A stretch of 12,477 bases of DNA from UHGV virus genome UHGV-0072520; one strand, 5' to 3'. Of this stretch, positions 1-12,477 are shown one piece after another. The stretch's first letter is position 1. The number at the start of each line of letters is the position of its first letter. This DNA is from a virus. Below the pieces are notes generated by a model. That model saw only the letters and a list, made by a program, of their open reading frames with translations. It searched no databases and had not been told where the DNA came from. The position numbers and the translations under genes are program-made.

Positions 1-49
1 AGACTTGGATGATAGACTTCATGCCTTTGATTATTAGCTGATAGAAGAA

Positions 50-412
50 ATGTTAAAGCTATTTGCAAAGTACACCTCGATTGGTGTGCTGAACACACTT
101 ATACACTGGGTGGTTTTTGGTGTATGTATTTATGCCGCGCATACAAATCAGGCTCTGGCAAACTTCGCAGGTTTCATAGTAGCTGTGAGCTTTAGCTTCT
201 TCGCGAATGCAAGATTCACATTCAAAGCATCGACTACAACGATGCGCTACATGTTATACGTGGGATTCATGGGAACCTTGAGTGTTGTCGTCGGGTGGGC
301 TGCTGATAGATGTGCACTTCCCCCAATGGTCACCCTTATCACTTTCTCCGCCATCAGCCTGGTGTGCGGTTTCGTATATTCAAAGTTCATTGTCTTTAGG
401 GATGCGAAATGA
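50..412 (+). CDS. gtrA: GtrA, bactoprenol-linked glucose translocase (flippase), small polytopic membrane protein
   Basis: 120-aa hydrophobic ORF; N- and C-terminal sequence ([24 protein letters not shown] ... [13 protein letters not shown]) recognised as GtrA of serotype-converting Shigella/E. coli phages. Its stop overlaps the next start (ATGA at 409-412), indicating translational coupling. Confidence 0.88.
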
Positions 413-1335
413 AGATATCTCTTGTAGTTCCTGTCTTCAATGAAGAAGAAGCGATACCAATTTTTTATAAAACGGTACGTGAATTCGAAGAGTTGAAGCC
501 ATATGAGGTGGAAATTGTTTTCATAAATGACGGCAGCAAAGACTCTACAGAGTCAATAATTAACGCTCTGGCTGTTTCTGATCCGCTAGTTGTTCCGCTG
601 TCATTTACCAGAAACTTTGGTAAAGAACCTGCGCTGTTCGCTGGTCTTGATCACGCAACTGGTGAGGCGATTATCCCGATTGACGTTGACTTACAGGATC
701 CAATAGAAGTTATTCCTCACCTGATTGAGAAATGGCAACAAGGTGCGGACATGGTTCTGGCTAAACGCTCTGACCGCTCTACTGATGGTCGATTGAAGCG
801 CAAAACAGCTGAGTGGTTCTATAAGCTACATAATAAAATAAGCAATCCGCAAATTGAGGAGAACGTCGGAGACTTCCGTCTGATGTCTCGTGAAGTAGTT
901 GAAAATATCAAGCTTTTACCCGAGCGTAATCTGTTCATGAAAGGTGTGCTTAGCTGGGTTGGCGGCCGTACTGATGTTGTCGAATATGCACGCGCTGAGC
1001 GTGTTGCTGGTAGCACTAAATTCAACGGATGGAAGTTGTGGAATTTGGCACTTGAAGGAATAACCAGCTTCTCTACATTCCCATTACGCATCTGGACTTA
1101 CATCGGCCTTCTCGTTGCTGGAGTTTCGTTCCTTTACGGAGCTTGGATGATTATTGACACACTTGCATTTGGTAATGCTGTCAGAGGCTATCCTTCCCTT
1201 CTCGTTTCCATATTATTCCTTGGTGGAATTCAGCTAATCGGCATTGGTGTTTTAGGGGAATATATTGGAAGAATTTATGTAGAAGCAAAACATCGCCCAA
1301 GATATTTAATTAAAAAGGAAAAACATGAAAAATAA
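409..1335 (+). CDS. gtrB: GtrB, bactoprenol glucosyltransferase (GT2 family)
   Basis: 308-aa ORF beginning [20 protein letters not shown] with FINDGSKD and DVDLQDP motifs typical of GT2 undecaprenyl-phosphate glucosyltransferases, plus C-terminal transmembrane segments; directly follows gtrA. Confidence 0.9.
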
Positions 1336-2629
1336 TAACACACATATAATGATAATCATATATGCTTTAGTTATATGCATGCTTACATCAAATGTTTTTA
1401 TGATTAATACTAGTGATTTTTACAGATCGGTATTTCCTTTCATAGGTGAAATAAATACATTTGATGGAAATCTAACACTAAATTATGAATTAAAAAAAGA
1501 TTTTTTGAGTGTTTTCTCCTATGATTACATTAGCTCTTATAGTTACATCTTATATATTTATGCTTATATTATTTCTTTCTTTACAAATTATTTAGATTTG
1601 AGATTGCTATCAAGTATTCTTAAGATTATTTTTATAATAACATTATACTCATTATTTAGAAATATCACCAAGGAAAATGGCGCTAAATTTTTGGCGATAT
1701 TTTTCATAATCGCTCTCCCTATGCTATCAACCTCAAACCTAGCATTCTTCTCATCTTTTTATCAAGAGCAAATAGTAATCATAGCATTACCAATAGTCTC
1801 TTTATTTATAAGCGGCAATAATAAAAAAGATATACTCATTACTTTCATAGCTGCCACCCTCATAGCTTGCTCAAAGAGCCAGTTCTTTTACCTTCCGTTA
1901 ATAATAGCAATAGCTTATGGCATATTTAATCGAGATATGTTTAAGTTTAAAATTTTATTAACAGTTTTATCAATGTCGCTTTCTTTAATGTGCATTTGGG
2001 GTTCCTCTGGTGCGGCAGCATTTAATAAATACCATGCAAATTATTTTGGTATATATGAATATGCAAAAATCAATAATATTGAGATCGAACAAAACGTAGA
2101 CCAAAAATGCATTGGCGTAGATGCGTGGGGAAATAAATTTAATCTAGAACATGGAGCTATACAAACAACTTTAGGTGGCGATTGTTTTGGTAGAAATACT
2201 TCTGCTGGTTTCGTCGATGTAATTAGATGGGTCGCTAAAAACCCCAGCATTATTTATAATCTTCCAGTTGATGCCGGGATTAAAACACAATATACTGAAA
2301 ATTATTTCCATGTATTTAATGGAATAAAATTAATACAGGGGAATACAGGGGCATTGTCATACTTAACTGAAGTCAAGGATTATTTATTTAAAGATCTTAG
2401 GTTTGTTATTTTATTCATTACAATGTTGTTATCAATCATCTTCATTAGAAAGAAACTCTCAATTTTACTCTTTACCGTATGCTCGTTTGGGACATCACAG
2501 TTATACGTCTCTTTTTTTGGCGAGGGTTACAGAGATTTAGACAAACATCTTTTCGGGATGAATTTCGCATTCGACTTAACTATATTTATCGTGATGTGTC
2601 TTTTAGTTAGATTAAAATTCAAAAAATAA
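1325..2629 (+). CDS. Type-specific O-antigen glucosyltransferase (GtrC-type), polytopic membrane protein; serotype specificity undetermined
   Basis: 434-aa highly hydrophobic ORF immediately after gtrAB, the canonical position of the type-specific gtr gene. Strikingly AT-rich compared with flanking DNA. Start overlaps the gtrB stop by 11 nt; an alternative in-frame ATG lies at 1349. Confidence 0.72.
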
Positions 2630-2660
2630 AATATTGCTGCGCCATGATTAACATGGCGCA
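2621..2660 (-). terminator. Intrinsic terminator between convergent gtrC and tailspike genes
   Basis: Perfect 9-bp inverted repeat tgcgccatg / catggcgca (2638-2646 and 2652-2660) with 5-nt loop attaa. The + strand A-run at 2621-2636 gives a U-tract for - strand transcripts just past the tailspike stop. May act weakly on + strand transcripts too. Confidence 0.5.
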
Positions 2661-2666
2661 AATTAC

Positions 2667-4628
2667 TCACCAGTCTGCTAAAACTATCGCCCCACGCATA
2701 AATGCACGGTAAAAAGGAGATTCCCCTGCAGGGAAGCTGAAATGGAGAACTGGTGCTTCCCCAACAGCGTAATAATCTTCCGGTTTGAATCCAAACATAA
2801 ACGTTTGGCTTGAAGAAAGAGTCACACTTGCAATATCTTGATAGCGAATACCGTCTTTGCTTTTACCCATAAGAAAAAGTCCGTTTATAGGATTCCCGCC
2901 ATTAAGATTGGATATCTCAAGCCAAGCCCCTACGCCCTTACTGTAGCTACTGCAAAGACATAGAGATGCATCAGAAGTTTTAAAAGCAACTCCACTGACA
3001 TCGACTCCTTGCTGGGTGGTTTCATGGTCCCCATCACCAGAGCCACTTAATATCCTAGTTGGCCATGCATTCTTCGTAATTGTCTGGTCACTTGAGCTTG
3101 GATCCGCAGGCATAACATCCTTAAGCAATTCCTGTAGTGGCCAATGTTTACCACTGCCGGCTCCACCAAATAGATAGGTCTTTGTTTTTAGCTGTCTTGG
3201 ATAAGACTTGGATGCTAGTTTAGTAACTAACTCTTGAAGTATTCGATTAGTGCGTATCCTGTCAGTAATACCTGGGTCAGCTTCACCATCCCATACAAAT
3301 GCACCAAAATTCCCATTGCCCGCAGCGCCAAATATTTCAGCGCCTCCAACTACCTGATCAATATCACCACTTATATTGCTTCCACTAAATAGAAACGCAC
3401 CAACTACAGGGATAACATTAGGAATTTCAGTCATTTTGGAAATTACACCAAAATCTAATCTCATTTTCACAAGATCGGCGTTAATTCTGGTTTGTAAATC
3501 TCCTGTTGCAGCAGTTGAATATGAGTTAACTAAAGCCAGATCATAATTTTTTGAATACCATTGATTGAACGGTCCGCCAGGAGGAAGTTGGCACACCATA
3601 AGCAATGTTTTGTTTGTAACACTACGAAGAGTTTCAATCTTTGCATCCTGATCTGCAACACTGATCCCTCTAGCGCCTGGCTCGTCATATACTGCATATG
3701 CTACAACCGCAGGATGAGTGTCTATGGATTTAACAAAACTTGGCAGATCAGATATAGCAAGCGGGTCTTGTTCGGTTCCGATAGAAACTTTTAGACCTGC
3801 TGTTAAAGCATTATCTAATAACTTAAACTTGTCGCCTTCATCATCTACAGAACCACTAAACCCCAAATAATGGTGGATACTATTAAATCCTAATTGCTTT
3901 ATAAATAACAACTCAGCCAAGTCATAAGCAGAGCTAACGTAACAAATTTTCACTTTTGCATCGAAAGATACATCTACTTCTGAAGTCGCTAATATTGATC
4001 CAAGATTGTAGCGAGTCGTGTTAATCTTAAAATTACCGATTAATTTCTGCCCCTTAGATTTCAGCTTTTTTGTGATTTTATACTCTTTGTCTTTGATTCC
4101 TACAACATCCTTCCCAGTATCAAATGCAGCCTGAATGGCGTCTGACCAATCATCATCAACAACAAGATTTGCATAATCTTCGATGTAAGCATATACATCA
4201 CTACGCTTATTAAGGTTGTCTATATCAGTCTGCTTTGCGGCCCCATTTACTAAATCCACACCACCAGGTGCAGCAAGCTCCTGTCTTAACTGATCAGGAT
4301 CGTACTTCAGCACATTAGGAAAATAGAATTGCTGTGCACCATACGCATCATAACCAGCCATAGAATGGCCTTGCACGGTAACGAATTTGGCAATCTGTCC
4401 GTTATATACAGGATAACCAGCAGCGTTAATGATGATTGGTTGAGAAACAGGAACGTGAGAGCCGTCTTCGTTCTCTATATAAACCTGAATCTGGTTTTCA
4501 GGATTTACCGGGTCCGTGTCAATTTTACCGATATAAATTTTGCCATTGGCTACGGCTTTAAAAGAACGCGCCATAGTGAAGAGTTGCGATGGCATTGATA
4601 CGATCACATTGGCTGTAATGTCTGTCAT
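2667..4628 (-). CDS. Tailspike protein: P22-type N-terminal head-binding domain, divergent C-terminal receptor-binding/depolymerase domain
   Basis: 653-aa ORF. The first ~115 aa ([13 protein letters not shown] ... [38 protein letters not shown] ... [13 protein letters not shown] ... NVLKYDPDQ) closely resemble the conserved head-binding domain of P22/Sf6/HK620 tailspikes as I recall them. The remainder is not recognisably the P22 endorhamnosidase. RBS GGAG lies 8 nt upstream of the ATG on the - strand. Confidence 0.85.
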
Positions 4629-5968: not shown

Positions 5969-7816
5969 TTATTGCTGTTCTGCTGTAATTTGGCTTGAAA
6001 GTATAGGGCGTATCGCATTTGCAGCATTATTTAGCGCTCTTTCATAGGCTGGTGTTCCTGCTTTGGTGTTTGCCAAACGTAAGAGAGCATTCCTTGCTGC
6101 TTTTGACTCATACAAGCGCATCATTGCACCGAAACCAGCCTCAAGCCCCATTGATACGCCAAGAGTCGCAGTTGCGCCAATCGTCCTTATCCTGTTGGCT
6201 TGCGATTGCCCCGTCTGAGTTACTACATTTGCGGTGTCTGACCTTGCTGTTTGCTGTAGAACTTCATGAAGAGAATCAAGCTCTTTCATGTGCTTTCCAG
6301 AAAAAATAGTGTTGTAAATTTCACCGCCTGACTGAGATTTCAGCTTATTAACTTCAGTGATGAACTTGGCTGGAGAGTCCCCGGCCTTTTCCGCTATTTT
6401 GCTGACGTAAGCTGCACGCATAGCATCTTTCCCCTTATCATCCAGTGCGCTCCAGATTCGTTTCACGTCAGATGGTTTTCTGCTTAATACAACGGTATTT
6501 ATAAGTTCAGGACTGGCTTCACTGCTTGCCTTGTTGAGCTTGTTGGCAATGTTTTTATTAAGCACCTTATTATAAACGTTTGCATAATCGGAATTTGCTT
6601 TAAGGTATTTTGCTGCGTCTGATGCACCGAGGTTTTTAGCAACTGCGTTACGAAGGTCTTTTGACATTGCATTCTCTACCATATTGGTAGCTGCTTTTGC
6701 CTGGTTGGGGAAGACCATAGCATCTCCCTGAACATTAGATCTAAATGCTGTTCTGTGCTGACGCAAGAGATCAAACGTAACATCCAAATCAGTTGCAGGG
6801 TTTGCTAATTCTTCACGTAGGTTACGCAAGGATGTAAGCAGGCTTTGATTGGCAGACGTCCCAAGCCGTTCCTGTCTTGCGATCGCTGTATTCAGAGCAT
6901 TCATGGTATTTGTTGTATCAACTGCGGCATTACCCATTTTATTGGTGACGTCATTGATAACAGCGCCAGCGGCATCCTTCCGTCCCCTTAACGTGGTGGT
7001 CAGAGATTTCACCACATCATCAGGGTTGTACTCACCAAAACGGTCAAAATAATTACTTACCAGTTTACTACGCGTTGCATATTGCTCCGCTCGCTTTGAT
7101 CCTGTCCCGAGCAAAGCCCCCTCGGCATCCTGAGTAAGGCCGCGAGTGAAAGCATTTTTCGGTGGGATGACATCAGATGTCATTGGCGTCACACCCATTG
7201 ATTCTGAGGTGGCAATTTTTTTCGCTACTTCTGGCGCGATATCGCCTTTTATAGCCGTTATTCCACGCCCTATTCCCTTTGCTGCTGCGGAAAGAACACC
7301 CTGAGCGGCAAGGTTAACTCCGGCATTTTTAGCTGCATTTTGTGCGAAATCGCCTTTCTGATTTGCGGCCTCTGCCAGTGAGCCAATAGCCATGCTTCCT
7401 GCCGTTCCAACTCCTGGAACTAAATACCCGCCAATTGTTTCTCCAGCTTGCGCATAAGGGTCTGTCGGTCGATCGACAGGGCGATAAACATCATCCAAAA
7501 CCTTGGGGCCACCAAGCCCCTGGCTGATTGCATTAATCAGACTTGCGCCACCCTGCAATACGTCAAATGGTATGTTTACCAGACCACGACCAGCCTGTTC
7601 TGCAATTTGCCCTGCACTTTGACCACCAGTGAGCCAATCGCCAGCTTGTTGCATCAATGATGGTTCTTCCCGTGTTGGTGCATTATTGGCCTGATTAACT
7701 GTTTGTTGCTGAACAGCCTGACCAGCAAAATACTCATCAATGGCGGTGCCAATATCTTCGGTGCTCGTACCATCAGGAAAGGTAAATGTCTTACCGTTTG
7801 CAGTTACTTTCATCAT
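5969..7816 (-). CDS. Ejection (DNA-transfer/injection) protein, P22 gp16-like
   Basis: 615-aa Ala/Gly/Gln-rich ORF without obvious enzymatic motifs, upstream of and co-oriented with the tailspike, matching the position and approximate size of P22 gene 16. Start overlaps the upstream stop (ATGA at 7813-7816). Assignment is by synteny and composition, not verified homology. Confidence 0.6.
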
Positions 7817-8805
7817 TCCACCGTAAATTGAATGCCTGATTTTGAGGTATATGATCCGGATTGACTCTGCTGCTGTTGGGTATTTGTCGGTTGTTGGTTA
7901 TTGCTCTGTTGTTGACTATTTGCAGCACTTGAAACCACCAAAGCATCATAAACGCGACCAGACTGACCACGTAATGAGTTATATTGGCCCTGCATTTTTC
8001 GCATTTTTGTTTCAGTAGCAGCCTTGGAATCACCAGGCTGAGGCAGGTACATTTTGGAATACTCCTGCATCTCTGGCAGAGTAATTGCTGCACCTGTTTC
8101 TGGGCGCAAAATTGCATACAAGGCGTCTCTCGCATTTACCATATATTGCTGCTCCGCTGGTGATAGGCTTAAATTTGCAATAGTCCCATCACCAAGAGAG
8201 CGATTTATTAATGCAACTCGCTTAGGGTCAATGCTTTTACTAAGCTGATTCATTGAGTCCATTGAATCTTTTAATCGCAAAGCAAATCCTGCCGCCTTCT
8301 TGGAACCCTCATTAGCCTTATCTATGATGCTTTGCGCTTGTGGCAAACTAATTGGTTTAATGCCATCACCAGATATAGGTTGGTTTAGTTTTCCGGCTTC
8401 CTCGCTGCCATCGGTGTAATACTTAGTTACCGAGCCATCAGGATTGGTTTCAACCTTAAGTAATTTCTTAGCATTGGGATTAATTCCCGCCGCTGCCGCA
8501 AATGCCGCTGCACCATCTGGATCCGCCTTTAACATTTGCGCGTACTGATTGTAATTCTGCATTGCGACTGTTGGTGCATATGCTGACGTTAACGCATTTG
8601 CTCGGCTAATATCCTGCCCTCTCGCCTGAAGTGCCTCGCCAGCCTGATTGCTGCGGATTGTCTCTGCCAGTCTGCCTCGGTCAATCTCACGACCAGCCAT
8701 CTTGTCCTGAACAGCAAACGCCTTTTCTGGTCCAAGCGCACCGAGAGACATAGTAGTCAGCATGTGTGATAGCTGCTCTGGATTCTGGATACCTGTCTGA
8801 ATCAT
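7813..8805 (-). CDS. Ejection protein, P22 gp20-like, apparently missing its 5' end
   Basis: 330-aa ORF from the first ATG, but the frame stays open upstream to 8919 with no start codon, which suggests the N-terminal coding part was deleted. Translationally coupled to the gp16-like gene. Assignment is by synteny. Confidence 0.5.
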
Positions 8806-8835: not shown

Positions 8836-9192
8836 CCTGTCCTTGTTGTCAGTAATGAATTTACTGTAGGCTTCCGGTCCCTGAGAAAGAGCGACGTTAC
8901 CGTAATAGTCCCCTGTCGGTTAGGGAAGCTGCGTGTTGAGCTGGAAGCAACAGAGAACAACCTCATTGATAGTGAATGCCATGTTGCTGAACTGGAAGAA
9001 GCACTACGCGACAAGCAGGCGTTACTTGAAGCCTCAGAAAAGCGCATAGCAGAACAAAGCTCGATTGTTACAGCCGCTGAAAAACTGGTTCGCTGTAAAG
9101 GCCGCTATCACAGTGAGCAAAACTATCGTGCGCTGGCTGCATTGTTTGGCGTAACAGTGCCGGATTTACCACCACTGCAAGCAGATGATTAA
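8836..9192 (+). pseudogene. 3' fragment of an early-region gene (coiled-coil C-terminus), no start codon
   Basis: Open frame 8836-9189 with no ATG/GTG/TTG start. It encodes ...KLRVELEATENNLIDSECHVAELEEALRDKQALLEASEKRIAEQ...LFGVTVPDLPPLQADD and ends 10 nt before the next gene with operon-like spacing (AAGGA RBS at 9191-9195). Confidence 0.35.
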
Positions 9193-9202
9193 GGACTAAC
9201 CT

Positions 9203-9775
9203 ATGACCACTATTACCAAAGAGCGACTACTGACAATCAAGCAGTGGCGCGAAACATACGGACCTGGTAGCAACGTTGTACTGCCAGCAGAAGAAGCGGA
9301 AGAACTGGCACGAATTGCTCTGGCATCGCTGGAAGCAGAACCTGTAAGCCAAACTTACAACTTGCCACAAACGCACTTTGAACAGGTTGCTGACCTTTAC
9401 GAAATGCAATTTGATGACGGACGCACTTGTGCCTTTCATACTGATGCACAAAAGGCTGCGCAATGGCTTCGGGCATGCGACGGAAACAGGGTTCAGGAAT
9501 ACGTGAAACTGGAGCGACTGCAGAACGCGCTATCGGGCAACTCTCCGGTAATTCCGGATAGTTGGATAAGCTGTAGTGAGCGAATGCCGGAAAAGAATCA
9601 GAACGTGCTTATTTCGGTGAATTTCGATAGCTCTCTGGTTGAACCGCTAATATGCTCCGCACGCTATACCGGAAGCACCTTTCGGCGCGGAGATGCAACG
9701 ATTAAGCCGGGTAATGGTATTGAGCAAGCAACTCACTGGATTCCGCTACCGGAACCGCCGCAGGAGGCGAAATGA
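9203..9775 (+). CDS. DUF551-like phage early protein
   Basis: 190-aa ORF whose C-terminus (WISCSERMPEKNQNVLI ... ATHWIPLPEPP) matches the DUF551 signature common in lambdoid/P22-like early regions, as I recall it. AAGGA RBS 7 nt upstream. Confidence 0.68.
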   Translation: MTTITKERLLTIKQWRETYGPGSNVVLPAEEAEELARIALASLEAEPVSQTYNLPQTHFEQVADLYEMQFDDGRTCAFHTDAQKAAQWLRACDGNRVQEYVKLERLQNALSGNSPVIPDSWISCSERMPEKNQNVLISVNFDSSLVEPLICSARYTGSTFRRGDATIKPGNGIEQATHWIPLPEPPQEAK

Positions 9776-10032
9776 TGGATGTAAAAGAGAAGGTTTTGCA
9801 GGTGATGCGTTCCCGGGCTGCCCTGCAAGATAAAGCTCTCGGCGGGGAATATCCATTCAGAATGGCAACCTGGAATTTGCGGTTGGCAATGGAGAAGGAA
9901 TTTCCTGATGAAGAATGGCGTTCGGCAGATTTGCGCAAAATTCTTATGGAGATTGCTAAAGACGGAACAGTATCTAAAGATAACCATGCCAGCCGGATTG
10001 GTCAGGCGGTATGGAGACTGGAGGTGCGGTAA
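9772..10032 (+). CDS. Hypothetical small phage protein
   Basis: 86-aa ORF; start overlaps the upstream stop (ATGA at 9772-9775), indicating translational coupling within the early operon. Confidence 0.55.
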   Translation: MMDVKEKVLQVMRSRAALQDKALGGEYPFRMATWNLRLAMEKEFPDEEWRSADLRKILMEIAKDGTVSKDNHASRIGQAVWRLEVR

Positions 10033-10313
10033 TGGCTAACCTGCAACTTGCCGTCAAAGGTGAATACTTCGATGCCATGATTCGCGGAGATAAAACGGAA
10101 GAGTATCGCCTGTGTAATGACTACTGGAATAAGCGAATTATGTTCCGGGAATATGACCGCCTGATTATCACAAAGGGATATCCGAAGCGCGACGACTCCA
10201 GTCGCAGAATTGATGTTCCGTATGGAGGATATGAAGTGAAAACAATCACACACCCCCACTTCGGTGATAAGCCGGTAAAGGTATACGCGATAAAGGTGAA
10301 TATCAATTGCTAA
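10032..10313 (+). CDS. ASCH/PUA-like domain protein
   Basis: N-terminus MANLQLAVKGEYFDAMIRGDKTEEYRL resembles the ASCH-domain signature (compare E. coli YqfB ...FQDDILAGRKTITIRD). Start chosen at the ATG overlapping the upstream stop (TAATG) with GGAGGTG 7 nt upstream. The ORF-track start at 10011 lies inside the previous gene. Confidence 0.58.
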   Translation: MANLQLAVKGEYFDAMIRGDKTEEYRLCNDYWNKRIMFREYDRLIITKGYPKRDDSSRRIDVPYGGYEVKTITHPHFGDKPVKVYAIKVNINC

Positions 10314-10424
10314 ATTAGTGGCATAGCATAAAGATGCTTGCATTAATGAAGTGTGTATAATAACGCCTCATCAATTGTAAACTACTGAAATAGCAAAAAA
10401 TGCATATTAAAGAGGATTCGAAAA

Positions 10425-10616
10425 TTGAAAATGTTCATGCAAATAGACAGACGCATAGATCTTAATGGCAATTCATACTTAGTTAGATGCGAAGAGAGGC
10501 CTAACGGTGAGTGGCGTGTATATGATATTGACCGTAAGATCAATATCAGCACCATGAACAAAGACACTGCCTTTGATGAATGGAAAGCTGAAGCTAAAAA
10601 ACAACATAATTCGTAG
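10425..10616 (+). CDS. Hypothetical small protein
   Basis: 63-aa ORF. AGAGGA at 10411-10416 is well spaced for the TTG at 10425; ATGs at 10431 and 10437 are alternatives. Followed by a terminator. Confidence 0.42.
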   Translation: MKMFMQIDRRIDLNGNSYLVRCEERPNGEWRVYDIDRKINISTMNKDTAFDEWKAEAKKQHNS

Positions 10617-10658
10617 AATTACAAAAACCCTAACCAATTGATGGATTTCTTTTATCTG

Positions 10659-10683
10659 AACTCGCTACGGCGAGTTTTGTTTT
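10659..10683 (+). terminator. Intrinsic terminator
   Basis: 7-bp stem aactcgc / gcgagtt with loop tacg, followed by ttgtttt. Confidence 0.55.
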
Positions 10684-10695
10684 ATGGAGATGATT

Positions 10696-10995
10696 ATGGC
10701 CTGTTCAACATTCAACCCTCTAACGTTACAGAAATACCAGCCAGCCCCTGAAGATTTATGCTCACTGTGTGGCGGAAATCATGGTAAAGCCGCCATGATT
10801 GAATGTAAGGACAAAATCCACATTTGCCTTAATTGCGTTGATGTCCTCGTTGATATCAAAAATGAGAGAGAAGATAAAAAGCGTAGCGAGGCTGTTCGAG
10901 CCTTAGATTCATGGATGCGAGATGGGTATAGTGCCGCGCAAATTTATGACTTAGCAATATCAAAAGGCGAAATACCAGGAGTGCGCATCGAATAA
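10696..10995 (+). CDS. Cys-rich small protein, possible zinc-ribbon
   Basis: ORF with paired CxxC motifs (CSLCGG ... CLNC) separated by about 18 residues. Start chosen at the ATG at 10696 with GGAG 6 nt upstream; the ORF track begins at 10684. Confidence 0.5.
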   Translation: MACSTFNPLTLQKYQPAPEDLCSLCGGNHGKAAMIECKDKIHICLNCVDVLVDIKNEREDKKRSEAVRALDSWMRDGYSAAQIYDLAISKGEIPGVRIE

Positions 10996-11035
10996 GACGT
11001 AACCAATATTTGTATTGAAGAACTGAAAGAACACC

Positions 11036-11061
11036 AAGCCGCCTGATGGCGGTTTATTTTT
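11036..11061 (+). terminator. Intrinsic terminator
   Basis: Stem ccgcc / ggcgg (11039-11043 and 11048-11052) with loop tgat, extendable by A-T pairs, followed by tttattttt. Confidence 0.55.
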
Positions 11062-11076
11062 GCCTGGAGAATTAAG

Positions 11077-11268
11077 ATGACCGATACCAGCCTGATTCCT
11101 GAGAAAGAAGTGATGAACAAGCTCGGTGTTTCATCACGTCAGACAATCTGGAACTATACCAAACGGCACGGATTTCCGAAGCCAGTCAGAACCCACCCCA
11201 AATCATACCTTCGTGAAGCTGTTGAGGGGTGGATTCTTAACGGTGGCGTTAATCAGAAATGCTCCTGA
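11077..11268 (+). CDS. AlpA-family phage transcriptional regulator / putative excisionase (HTH)
   Basis: 63-aa ORF MTDTSLIPEKEVMNKLGVSSRQTIWNYTKRHGFPKPV..., typical of AlpA/Xis-like small HTH proteins next to P4-type integrases. GGAG RBS at 11065-11068. Confidence 0.75.
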   Translation: MTDTSLIPEKEVMNKLGVSSRQTIWNYTKRHGFPKPVRTHPKSYLREAVEGWILNGGVNQKCS

Positions 11269-12427
11269 TGTGCCAGAACAATTTATCAGCGTGAAGCTCA
11301 TACGCTTTGCGCTGAGCCTCTATCCAGTCGTGTTTATTGTATACGGACATTATCCCGCCAAGTTCATGACCGAGCATTCGCTCAGTAACATGAGGCTCGA
11401 CATTCATCTCGGACAGACGTGTAACAAGCGTTCTTCTGAAATCATGTGTTCGCCAGTAACCTATATCCATCCCTCCCCTTATTCTATTTACGAATCGGTT
11501 GGCTGCAGCGATGCTGATCGGTTTGTTTATGTCTTCTCCAGGGAAAAGAACATCATTGTACGTTGTCATGGCCTTTTCGAGGAAAGGCTTAATTTGTTCG
11601 AAGATTGGACGGCGGATAACATTACCCATCTTGCTATGCTCTTTCGGTACGGTCCATACGTTTTCCAGCAGGTCAAATTCTGTCTTTTTTGCCAGCCTAA
11701 GCTCTGAGAGCCTCGCCCCCCACATCATAAGCATCTGATGAAGTAGCTTATTTGACGTAGACGCACGGCTTCTTTCAATAGCAAGCCAAATCTTAGCCAG
11801 TTCGTGATACGACAGTACCCGATCCCCTACCTCAGCGCGGGAGCCGAAGTCCCTTGGTTGGATGCTCATAATTGCGCAACTATCTATCAACTGACGCCGC
11901 ATGCACCAACTTATTGCTGACCTTAGTTGACTTAGCACCTGCCTTGCTCGGCGTGGATTATCTCTTTCTTCTTCGGTAAGCAGGTCAACCCATTGCTTAA
12001 CCGTGATAGAAGATGCCGGACGATTAGGAAAGGCGTCATGCATGCGCTTCATAACCGTTGATCGGTAAAGTGCCTGGGTCTTTTCTCTGAGAGTTGTAGA
12101 GACGTAGTTGTCGAACCAGTAGTCGAGACACTGGGCGACCGTCATGGAGTTCTCCACCTTCTCTTCAAAATAAGTGCGTGGATCCGTTCCTGAGAAATAG
12201 AGCTTTCGCAAGTCAGCAGTGATCTGTCTGGCATCCTTCAAAGACAGGGATGGGTATCGACCAAGCCCAAGTCGATTAGGCTTGCCATGCCAGCGATAGC
12301 GGTACTGGAACTGGATGACCCCCTTCGGTGAAATTCGTACGCTGAGGCCATCGGCATCAGCCACTTCTTGTGGGCCCGAATATGGTTTACCATAAATAGT
12401 ACGCAGTTTTGTGTCGCTTATAGCCAT
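11249..12427 (-). CDS. int: Tyrosine site-specific integrase, P4-type (DUF4102-like N-terminal arm-binding domain)
   Basis: 392 aa. N-terminus (SDTKLR ... DGLSVRISPKG ... YRYRWHGK ... LGLGRYPSLSLKDAR) fits the P4-family integrase pattern. C-terminal catalytic residues are visible: HDFRRT (H-x-x-R) and the tyrosine in MSVYNKHDW. Confidence 0.92.
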   Translation of the reverse strand: MAISDTKLRTIYGKPYSGPQEVADADGLSVRISPKGVIQFQYRYRWHGKPNRLGLGRYPSLSLKDARQITADLRKLYFSGTDPRTYFEEKVENSMTVAQCLDYWFDNYVSTTLREKTQALYRSTVMKRMHDAFPNRPASSITVKQWVDLLTEEERDNPRRARQVLSQLRSAISWCMRRQLIDSCAIMSIQPRDFGSRAEVGDRVLSYHELAKIWLAIERSRASTSNKLLHQMLMMWGARLSELRLAKKTEFDLLENVWTVPKEHSKMGNVIRRPIFEQIKPFLEKAMTTYNDVLFPGEDINKPISIAAANRFVNRIRGGMDIGYWRTHDFRRTLVTRLSEMNVEPHVTERMLGHELGGIMSVYNKHDWIEAQRKAYELHADKLFWHIRSISD

Positions 12428-12435
12428 AAATAATA

Positions 12436-12477
12436 TTTGGTACGCTCAGAAATAATGGTTTGGTACACATCTGGTAC
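12436..12477. repeat. Three direct copies of TGGTAC just outside the integrase 5' end (possible arm-type sites)
   Basis: TTTGGTAC at 12436-12443 and 12459-12466, and TGGTAC at 12472-12477, all in direct orientation at the window edge. Confidence 0.25.

Follow-up and report, generated by a model that had tools for sequence, protein, structure and literature searches.

We have found that five small genes next to the integrase of the virus genome UHGV-0072520 are likely to form a non-essential accessory block at the distal end of the leftward early (PL-type) operon in a P22-like or lambdoid temperate phage, located between ea22 and the excisionase gene. The sequence analysed, here called the window, is the whole stretch of 12,477 nucleotides, and the five genes are designated A to E. 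The cassette is a known kind of accessory block, composed of catalogued families and sitting in a dead prophage; by its sequence, the window is a remnant of about 12 kb of a P22-like (Lederbergvirus-type) prophage at the E. coli sbcB locus. The original prediction, made from the sequence without database searches, had proposed an early cassette of anti-defence or host-takeover genes. Our analysis adds fold or domain assignments for three "hypothetical" proteins, namely a winged helix (B), an ASCH motif (C) and a ClpX-type zinc-binding domain (ZBD; E). The last of these is the counterpart of L0063 of phage 933W, is carried by many Shiga-toxin (Stx) phages and E. coli prophages, and gives rise to a testable hypothesis on the manipulation of ClpXP.

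Between a deletion scar and the alpA/int pair there are indeed five intact plus-strand open reading frames (ORFs), as had been predicted: A (9203-9775, 190 aa), B (9772-10032, 86 aa), C (10032-10313, 93 aa), D (10425-10616, 63 aa) and E (10696-10995, 99 aa). A and B overlap by ATGA (9772-9775) and B and C by TAATG (10030-10034). The tight coupling that had been ascribed to the cassette as a whole is restricted to A-B-C; D follows an AT-rich spacer of 111 bp and E one of 79 bp. A Shine-Dalgarno-like sequence precedes each of the five genes. The cassette also has the terminators that had been claimed for it, both of them terminator-like hairpins on the plus strand. T1 (10658-10687) consists of an 8-bp stem plus TTTTGTTTT (-11.9 kcal/mol, z=-2.9 vs shuffles) and lies inside a 52-bp conserved joint at 10643-10694, and T2 (11036-11065), which has a T-run (-13.2 kcal/mol, z=-2.5 vs shuffles), falls in another such joint at 10995-11059. 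GC content is about 50% in A, 38% in D, 43% in E and 31% in the spacer before D. Each of the five proteins matches one PHROG family over its full length (E=7e-63 to 1e-48), and all five families are labelled "unknown function". Relative to their relatives, pN/pS is 0.36-0.43 for B, 0.11-0.26 for C, 0.26 for D (vs HK639) and 0.05-0.09 for E; since these values are below 1, B to E are real coding genes in phages and not chance ORFs.

The block is flanked on the plus strand by an Ea22 fragment upstream and by alpA downstream, and homologous blocks in intact phages occur between exo/erf-ea22 and xis. The integrase-proximal, early-left location that had been proposed thus corresponds to the exo-xis region, a recognised mosaic accessory region of lambdoid and P22-like phages (PMC8614690), and by sequence comparison the block is an ordinary accessory block in the variable distal part of this lambdoid exo-xis/ea region. 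In functional phages (933W, the O157 prophage, APC_JM3.2, L010 and L011) the block follows exo/bet or erf/abc and ea22 and precedes xis/int, and relatives have N_peptide or repressor genes upstream on the same strand. The closest likeness is to 933W, other Stx1/Stx2 phages and O157 prophages, which carry these genes in unchanged order immediately before xis/int: 933W reads L0065 (DUF551), L0064 (ASCH), L0063 (E), xis, int, and the O157 prophage at wrbA reads DUF551 fragment, B, ASCH, E, xis, int. E shares 99% amino acid identity with L0063; identity is 93% between C and the ASCH part of L0064 and 91% between the DUF551 portion of A and L0065. The differences are that 933W has neither B nor D, that its DUF551 protein has another N-terminal part, and that its integrase is of the Rac/Qin type, whereas the window has an sbcB P4-like integrase together with AlpA. 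An ASCH-like gene had been considered unusual for this position; this does not hold, as ASCH occurs at the same position in 933W, other Stx phages, APC_JM3.2 and many prophages.

Of 5426 complete E. coli genomes, 3802 have some part of positions 9100-11100, as do 537 phage records, and no record carries the whole block. In CUPF06 and 2015C-4498, ASCH-D-E adjoins two further integrase types, so that the C-D-E block is found beside three different integrase types when that of the window is included. Conserved joints lie at 9536-9595, 10643-10694 (with T1) and 10995-11059 (with T2), which are 93-100% identical despite differing neighbour genes; the joint with T1 is 96-100% identical across phages with different flanking genes. 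The two terminator-bearing spacers are conserved in the set formed by L002, L003, L005 and L011, with T2 in all four. From these alignments, the joints look like sites where accessory modules are exchanged by recombination.

In an intact phage, lambda and P22 biology would have this block transcribed very early from PL, with N/gp24-type antitermination reading through both internal terminators into alpA/xis. As a mosaic, the block encodes five independently exchangeable single-domain proteins, whose most likely role is to adjust phage-host physiology and the balance between lysis and lysogeny and not to take part in virion building. The exo-xis regions of lambda and Phi24B (orf60a, orf63, orf61, orf73, ea22 and variable ea8.5/orf55) are likewise situated in the operon between the recombination genes and xis, and their genes are early, small and non-essential and jointly modulate lysis-lysogeny (PMC8614690, PMC10789677). 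Acting as a whole, the region changes host gene expression and the balance between lysis and lysogeny, and the genes that have been studied individually are the conserved proximal ones only (PMC10789677, PMC4195576, PMC8614690). The window keeps an Ea22 fragment, but the studied genes from orf60a to ea22 are deleted in it, and A to E belong to the unstudied variable distal set.

The cysteine-rich protein recognised in the original prediction is E, and its cysteines can be assigned to a ClpX-type zinc-binding domain. Its start is placed at ATG 10696, which has GGAG 6 nt upstream and agrees with the 99-aa length of RefSeq homologues; a start at 10684 is less likely. The protein is predicted to comprise a C4 finger (C22, C25, C44, C47), a long helix and a C-terminal helical module. 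As a single sequence it matches the NCBIfam ClpX model with E=0.002 and a PDB ClpX ZBD with E=0.05 (phmmer), and NCBIfam gave matches only for E (the ClpX N-terminus) and for int. The alignment to the ClpX ZBD runs over 37 residues without a gap, and all four cysteines pair with C14/C17/C36/C39. An exhaustive search of 1.84 billion representatives yielded only 22 relatives. In an alignment of eleven full-length members (28-94% identity), C22, C25, C44 and C47 are invariant in the spacing C-x2-C-x18-C-x2-C. In the PDB, a profile of the E family picks up seven ClpX sequences, the best with E=1.2e-6, and no other entry below E=0.6; 10 of the 11 members match Pfam zf-C4_ClpX (PF06689), with a best E=1.5e-7. 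The domain call is already in databases, as UniRef automatically names close homologues of E "ClpX-type ZB domain-containing protein"; a literature search found no experimental work on E, nor anything relevant on L0063, phage ClpX-ZBD proteins or zf-C4_ClpX.

Three results weigh against this assignment. The single sequence of E scores 15.7 bits (E=0.014) against PF06689, under the cut-off of 27; the structural model of E has a moderate overall pLDDT of 77; and Foldseek returned no significant match with that model. Over the finger the pLDDT is about 90, and the model has zinc knuckles, a 30-residue helix and a short second helix. The NCBIfam ClpX models cover E only at positions 5-56 of about 415, and the AAA+ module is absent; judged from these matches, E is a ZBD-only protein and not a ClpX. 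It shares with the ClpX ZBD the cysteine spacing, about 33-35% identity over 37-40 ungapped residues and a helix after the second cysteine pair. It differs in having no AAA+ module, in a 20-residue N-terminal extension, in a much longer helix (residues 45-75) and in a portable C-terminal module found on unrelated proteins. In lambdoid prophages, the genes for distant members of the family (28-43% identity) invariably come after N or the repressor gene in the distal part of the leftward early operon, a few genes from int, and in two cases they stand beside DUF551. We also considered whether E is a homologue of lambda Ea8.5, since both are small zinc proteins beside xis. This was rejected, as the E-family profile misses the PDB structures of Ea8.5 homologues.

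The portable module corresponds to residues 59-99 of E (10870-10995; "...YSAAQIYDLAISKGEIPGVRIE"), which are also found at the C-terminal ends of unrelated prophage proteins about 180 aa long (P0146 and P0147). This recurrence suggests that the C-terminal 40 residues are a portable interaction module. In a separate observation, the metagenomic protein P0154 (464 aa) contains two ClpX-type ZBDs, the second of which is followed by a nucleoside 2-deoxyribosyltransferase-like domain, and the ZBD thus serves as a module in non-protease proteins as well.

In ClpX, the ZBD is needed for degradation of lambda O, and its F16/I46 hydrophobic patch docks lambda O, SspB, RssB and trigger factor (PMC7804408). 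Free ZBD inhibits RssB-mediated sigmaS degradation in vitro (PMC7226468). Residues F16 and I46 of ClpX align to L24 and I54 of E, and 4 of the 11 members have F at position 24, so the patch positions are kept as L/F and I. The most plausible action of E would be to compete or pair with the ClpX docking domain and so alter which substrates or adaptors reach ClpXP (a lambda-O-type initiator, RssB-sigmaS, SspB cargo). More specifically, E could be a ClpX ZBD mimic made early from PL that binds ZBD-docking degrons or adaptors, or pairs with the ClpX ZBD, and thereby spares an O-type initiator or RssB-delivered sigmaS from ClpXP; we regard this as a speculative proposal that is rather doubtful as it stands. 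The reuse of the ZBD outside ClpX in P0154 speaks against reading too much into the homology, which is therefore no proof of interaction with ClpXP substrates.

Small early phage proteins that modulate host AAA+ proteases include lambda CIII, which acts on FtsH, and T4 PinA and T7 Gp4.5, which act on Lon. CIII is encoded in the same leftward operon in relatives of the window. By analogy, E would resemble these as a small early-operon protein that modulates a host protease in favour of the phage programme. It has no homology to them, and they are competitive substrates or direct inhibitors and not copies of a protease docking domain. If the proposal were true, E would be to ClpXP what CIII is to FtsH. 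ClpXP sets how stable the phage replication initiator and sigmaS are, and E would then add an extra layer to the control of lysis-lysogeny and induction that governs Shiga-toxin production. It could also blunt protease-triggered toxin-antitoxin abortive infection, in which case E would be an anti-defence factor after all.

The ASCH-like assignment of C is plausible on sequence motifs. For C, the start at ATG 10032 is likelier than the ORF-lister start at 10011 and is preferred because homologues are 93-94 aa long. The protein would be a minimal ASCH/PUA-like domain; it matches phrog_625 with E=1e-49 and has more than 627 homologues, at least 73% identical across genera, to which NCBI gives the name "ASCH domain-containing protein". 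The hallmark of the ASCH superfamily is the octapeptide G-x-K-x-x-[ETS]-x-R (PMC9599836). C has the corresponding octapeptide G19-D-K21-T-E-E24-Y-R26, in which G19, K21, E24 and R26 are invariant in 22 homologues. The octapeptide speaks for the part of the original prediction that called C ASCH-like; the score of C against PF04266, 14.4 bits (gathering score 21.2; E=0.062), counts against the assignment, as does a search of the C profile against PDB sequences that found no ASCH structure. Among its close homologues, only 10 of 22 match Pfam ASCH at all (best E=0.002). Compared with the characterised members of the superfamily, E. coli YqfB, an N4-acetylcytidine amidohydrolase, and Zymomonas ZmASCH, a single-stranded RNA ribonuclease (PMC9599836), C shares the N-terminal octapeptide and a size of about 100 aa and differs in falling under the Pfam threshold and lacking a PDB sequence match. 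C is probably a binder or processor of RNA or of modified bases.

B, which NCBI names "Eaa protein", is predicted to be a stand-alone winged helix. It matches phrog_2814 (E=6e-52) and has 127 homologues across Enterobacteriaceae. An AlphaFold2 model built with 24 homologues has a pLDDT of 93, a pTM of 0.83 and the topology H1-b1-H2-H3-b2-wing-b3. The top Foldseek matches are all winged-helix proteins (RosR, the Fur DNA-binding domain, STIV F93, BlaI, PapI and Z-alpha), with probabilities of 0.97-1.0, TM scores of 0.55-0.71 and E=0.02-0.2. On the strength of this model we are confident of the winged-helix fold, and B is probably a nucleic-acid binder. The fold is the same as that of STIV F93, PapI, the BlaI/MecI N-domain and Z-alpha, but identity to these proteins is only 6-17% and B has no dimerisation or sensor domain. 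In other prophages a DUF4752 gene is the positional substitute of B; a relationship between the two was rejected (hhalign probability 0.1%).

A is a mosaic protein with an N-terminal module (residues 1-75) that is separately exchangeable and a C-terminal DUF551 domain (residues 120-187). The DUF551-like character that had been noted is firmly supported, with 73.5 bits against PF04448 (cut-off 22; E=2.5e-20) over the complete profile (1-68/68). The protein matches phrog_60 with E=6.7e-63, its N-terminal part also matches phrog_3323 and phrog_660, and the exact protein is recorded from E. coli O25:H4. The literature on DUF551 is limited to phenotypes of the E. coli CPS-53 protein YfdS, loss of which is cited in PMC4776307 and PMC10834534 as causing sensitivity to H2O2. 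A is probably a protein- or DNA-interaction adaptor.

D (phrog_16329, E=1.3e-48) has no detectable domain. Its TTG start at 10425 aligns with the ATG of the HK639 homologue; an alternative ATG is at 10431. The plus-strand spacer in front of it (10314-10424) contains a perfect TATAAT at 10356-10361, a possible candidate promoter for D by its sequence; this site has neither an acceptable -35 nor an extended -10 and was not called by the promoter scan. At the nucleotide level, complete copies of D are limited to 27 of 5426 E. coli genomes and one phage (Stx2a), and in 933W and the O157 prophages C and E have no D between them. The homologue in HK639 (HK639_31, 67% amino acid identity) is followed by a terminator and lies two genes from int. 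With T1 directly 3' of it, a deviating GC content and presence/absence polymorphism, D shows features of a moron, and from these features it is a rare orphan gene of moron-like layout (low GC, own ribosome-binding site, own terminator) with a putative promoter. A search of the whole window against Rfam at E<=1 matched no RNA family, and the D region is therefore not a known small RNA. The gene is left unannotated by PGAP in two complete RefSeq genomes (L010 7112-7300 and L011 7112-7300), despite the purifying selection that its pN/pS against HK639 shows. For A to D, PDB searches with single sequences, and with profiles of B and C, gave no credible match; matches to TPR, LPA-receptor and xylosidase entries were dismissed as low-complexity or chance.

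The proposal that one or more of A to E inhibits restriction, abortive infection or other immunity early in infection appears unlikely. Its general premise has support, as the block belongs to an early-operon accessory region that is hypervariable, and such regions of enterobacteriophages are enriched in host-interaction and counter-defence genes (bioRxiv 2023.04.06.535777). ASCH/PUA-like and winged-helix folds are described elsewhere as readers of modified nucleic acids, and a ClpXP modulator might, by analogy with the generally known phage Lon inhibitors, block protease-dependent activation of toxin-antitoxin abortive infection systems. Host takeover is likewise plausible for E. Against anti-defence, none of the five genes could be linked to a known anti-defence or defence family. 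PADLOC, run on seven proteins, gave only a 12.6-bit match for A (E=0.009), which is not meaningful, and none for B to E, no dedicated anti-defence profile library being searched; and no paper was found that ties DUF551, Eaa, the ASCH family of C or L0063 to defence evasion. The strong conservation of C across genera and the low pN/pS of E are unlike fast-diversifying anti-defence genes. The counter-defence genes of such operons, gam/abc and ral, are located nearer PL and not in the distal block.

The deletion scar that had been postulated upstream of A is real and is a compound junction (8898-8922). Homology to HK620 gene 20, on the minus strand, ends at 8899, with about 130 N-terminal codons gone, and homology to Ead/Ea22 of O157 prophages and 933W begins at 8917. 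The 25 nt of the junction are identical, at 25 of 25 positions, to the interior of the P22-type major capsid coding sequence (CDS) in a sister remnant (L002), and this relic of the coat gene wedged in the scar implies at least two deletion events and not one. On its other side is the C-terminal fragment of the Ead/Ea22-like gene (8917-9193, plus strand), which is 89% identical in nucleotide sequence to Ea22-like CDSs of L001 and to L0069 of 933W; its frame-0 translation stops at 9193 and its N-terminal part is deleted. The deletion runs leftwards from gene 20 to a point in the middle of ea22 and took out the head, lysis, replication, immunity and recombination genes, together with PL and the antiterminator gene. 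Family scans found a remnant without PL, N, replication, lysis and most head/morphogenesis genes. A promoter scan found no promoter-like site upstream of A, and the candidates for D and E are weak or incomplete. In this remnant A-B-C would probably be carried along unexpressed, and local signals could allow expression of D and E only.

It follows from the loss of promoter and antiterminator, from the truncation of the adjoining Ea22 gene and gene 20, and from the loss of replication, lysis and most morphogenesis functions that the five ORFs may well be inert DNA in this genome, whatever their role in live phages; we give this close to an even chance. The five frames, their ribosome-binding sites and both terminators are nevertheless intact, and D and E might still be transcribed. 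This view covers the present copy only and is compatible with families that are functional in phages (pN/pS <1).

The survival of the cassette had been taken as a hint of selection for host benefit. That it was retained as cargo or moron genes useful to the bacterium, for example through stabilisation of sigmaS or YfdS-like effects of the DUF551 domain, seems to us very unlikely. The low GC content and own terminators of D and E would fit such cargo, and a second, independently decayed remnant at sbcB also retains int-proximal ea genes. The H2O2 sensitivity cited for loss of YfdS and the stabilisation of sigmaS by free ZBD in vitro (PMC7226468) indicate how a benefit might arise. Survival is a weak argument, however. 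Position explains it, since the genes adjoin int and lie outside the internal deletion, and so does recency, since they are 93-99% identical to copies in functional phages and have had little time to decay. The deletion of the PL/N region and the promoter evidence given above also speak against retention for host benefit. The sister remnant holds a different ea set (DUF551, DUF4752 and a 55-aa ORF), so that it is the position that is conserved and not the genes.

This sister is a decayed P22-like prophage of E. coli 160-11H1 (L002, NZ_AP031375.1, 3001-14713) located between dacD-sbmC and sbcB, and it is bounded by the two ends of the window (1-4594 and 10995-12477, 99.5% identity). Its interior differs, with partial scaffold, coat, gp4 and gp10 genes and other ea genes. 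Downstream of E, the window encodes an AlpA-type excisionase/regulator (11077-11268, plus strand; Pfam Phage_AlpA E=0.003; phrog_66) and a P4-type (Arm-DNA-bind_3 in Pfam) tyrosine integrase that is specific for the sbcB site (11249-12427, minus strand). The alpA gene is the final gene of the leftward operon and is convergent with int. AlpA is 100% identical in Stx phages and APC_JM3.2, and the integrase is 99% identical to integrases adjoining sbcB in L002 and to those of Stx and Sf101-type phages. Because int is on the opposite strand, an origin from a separate element was considered; it was rejected, as the same module of alpA and inward-facing int terminates bona fide Stx phages, APC_JM3.2 and Sf101.

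The gene order of the window is gtrABC, tailspike, gp16, truncated gp20, scar, Ea22 fragment, A to E, alpA and int. Family scans identified gp16 (5969-7816, minus strand) and gp20 (7813-8805, minus strand), the match of the latter starting only at profile position 162, and small immI-region ORFs lie between the tailspike gene and gp16. At the opposite end of the prophage from A to E, family scans of large ORFs identified gtrA, gtrB and a gtrC-like gene (50-2629, plus strand), which form an intact O-antigen glucosylation operon. This operon is classic lysogenic-conversion cargo and is a better candidate than A to E for host-selected retention. Next to it, the P22-type tailspike gene (2667-4628, minus strand; family scans) keeps the P22 head-binding domain (residues 1-113). 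Its matches to many different PHROG tailspike families are confined to the N-terminal 110-220 residues, which is the usual pattern of modular exchange of the receptor domain.

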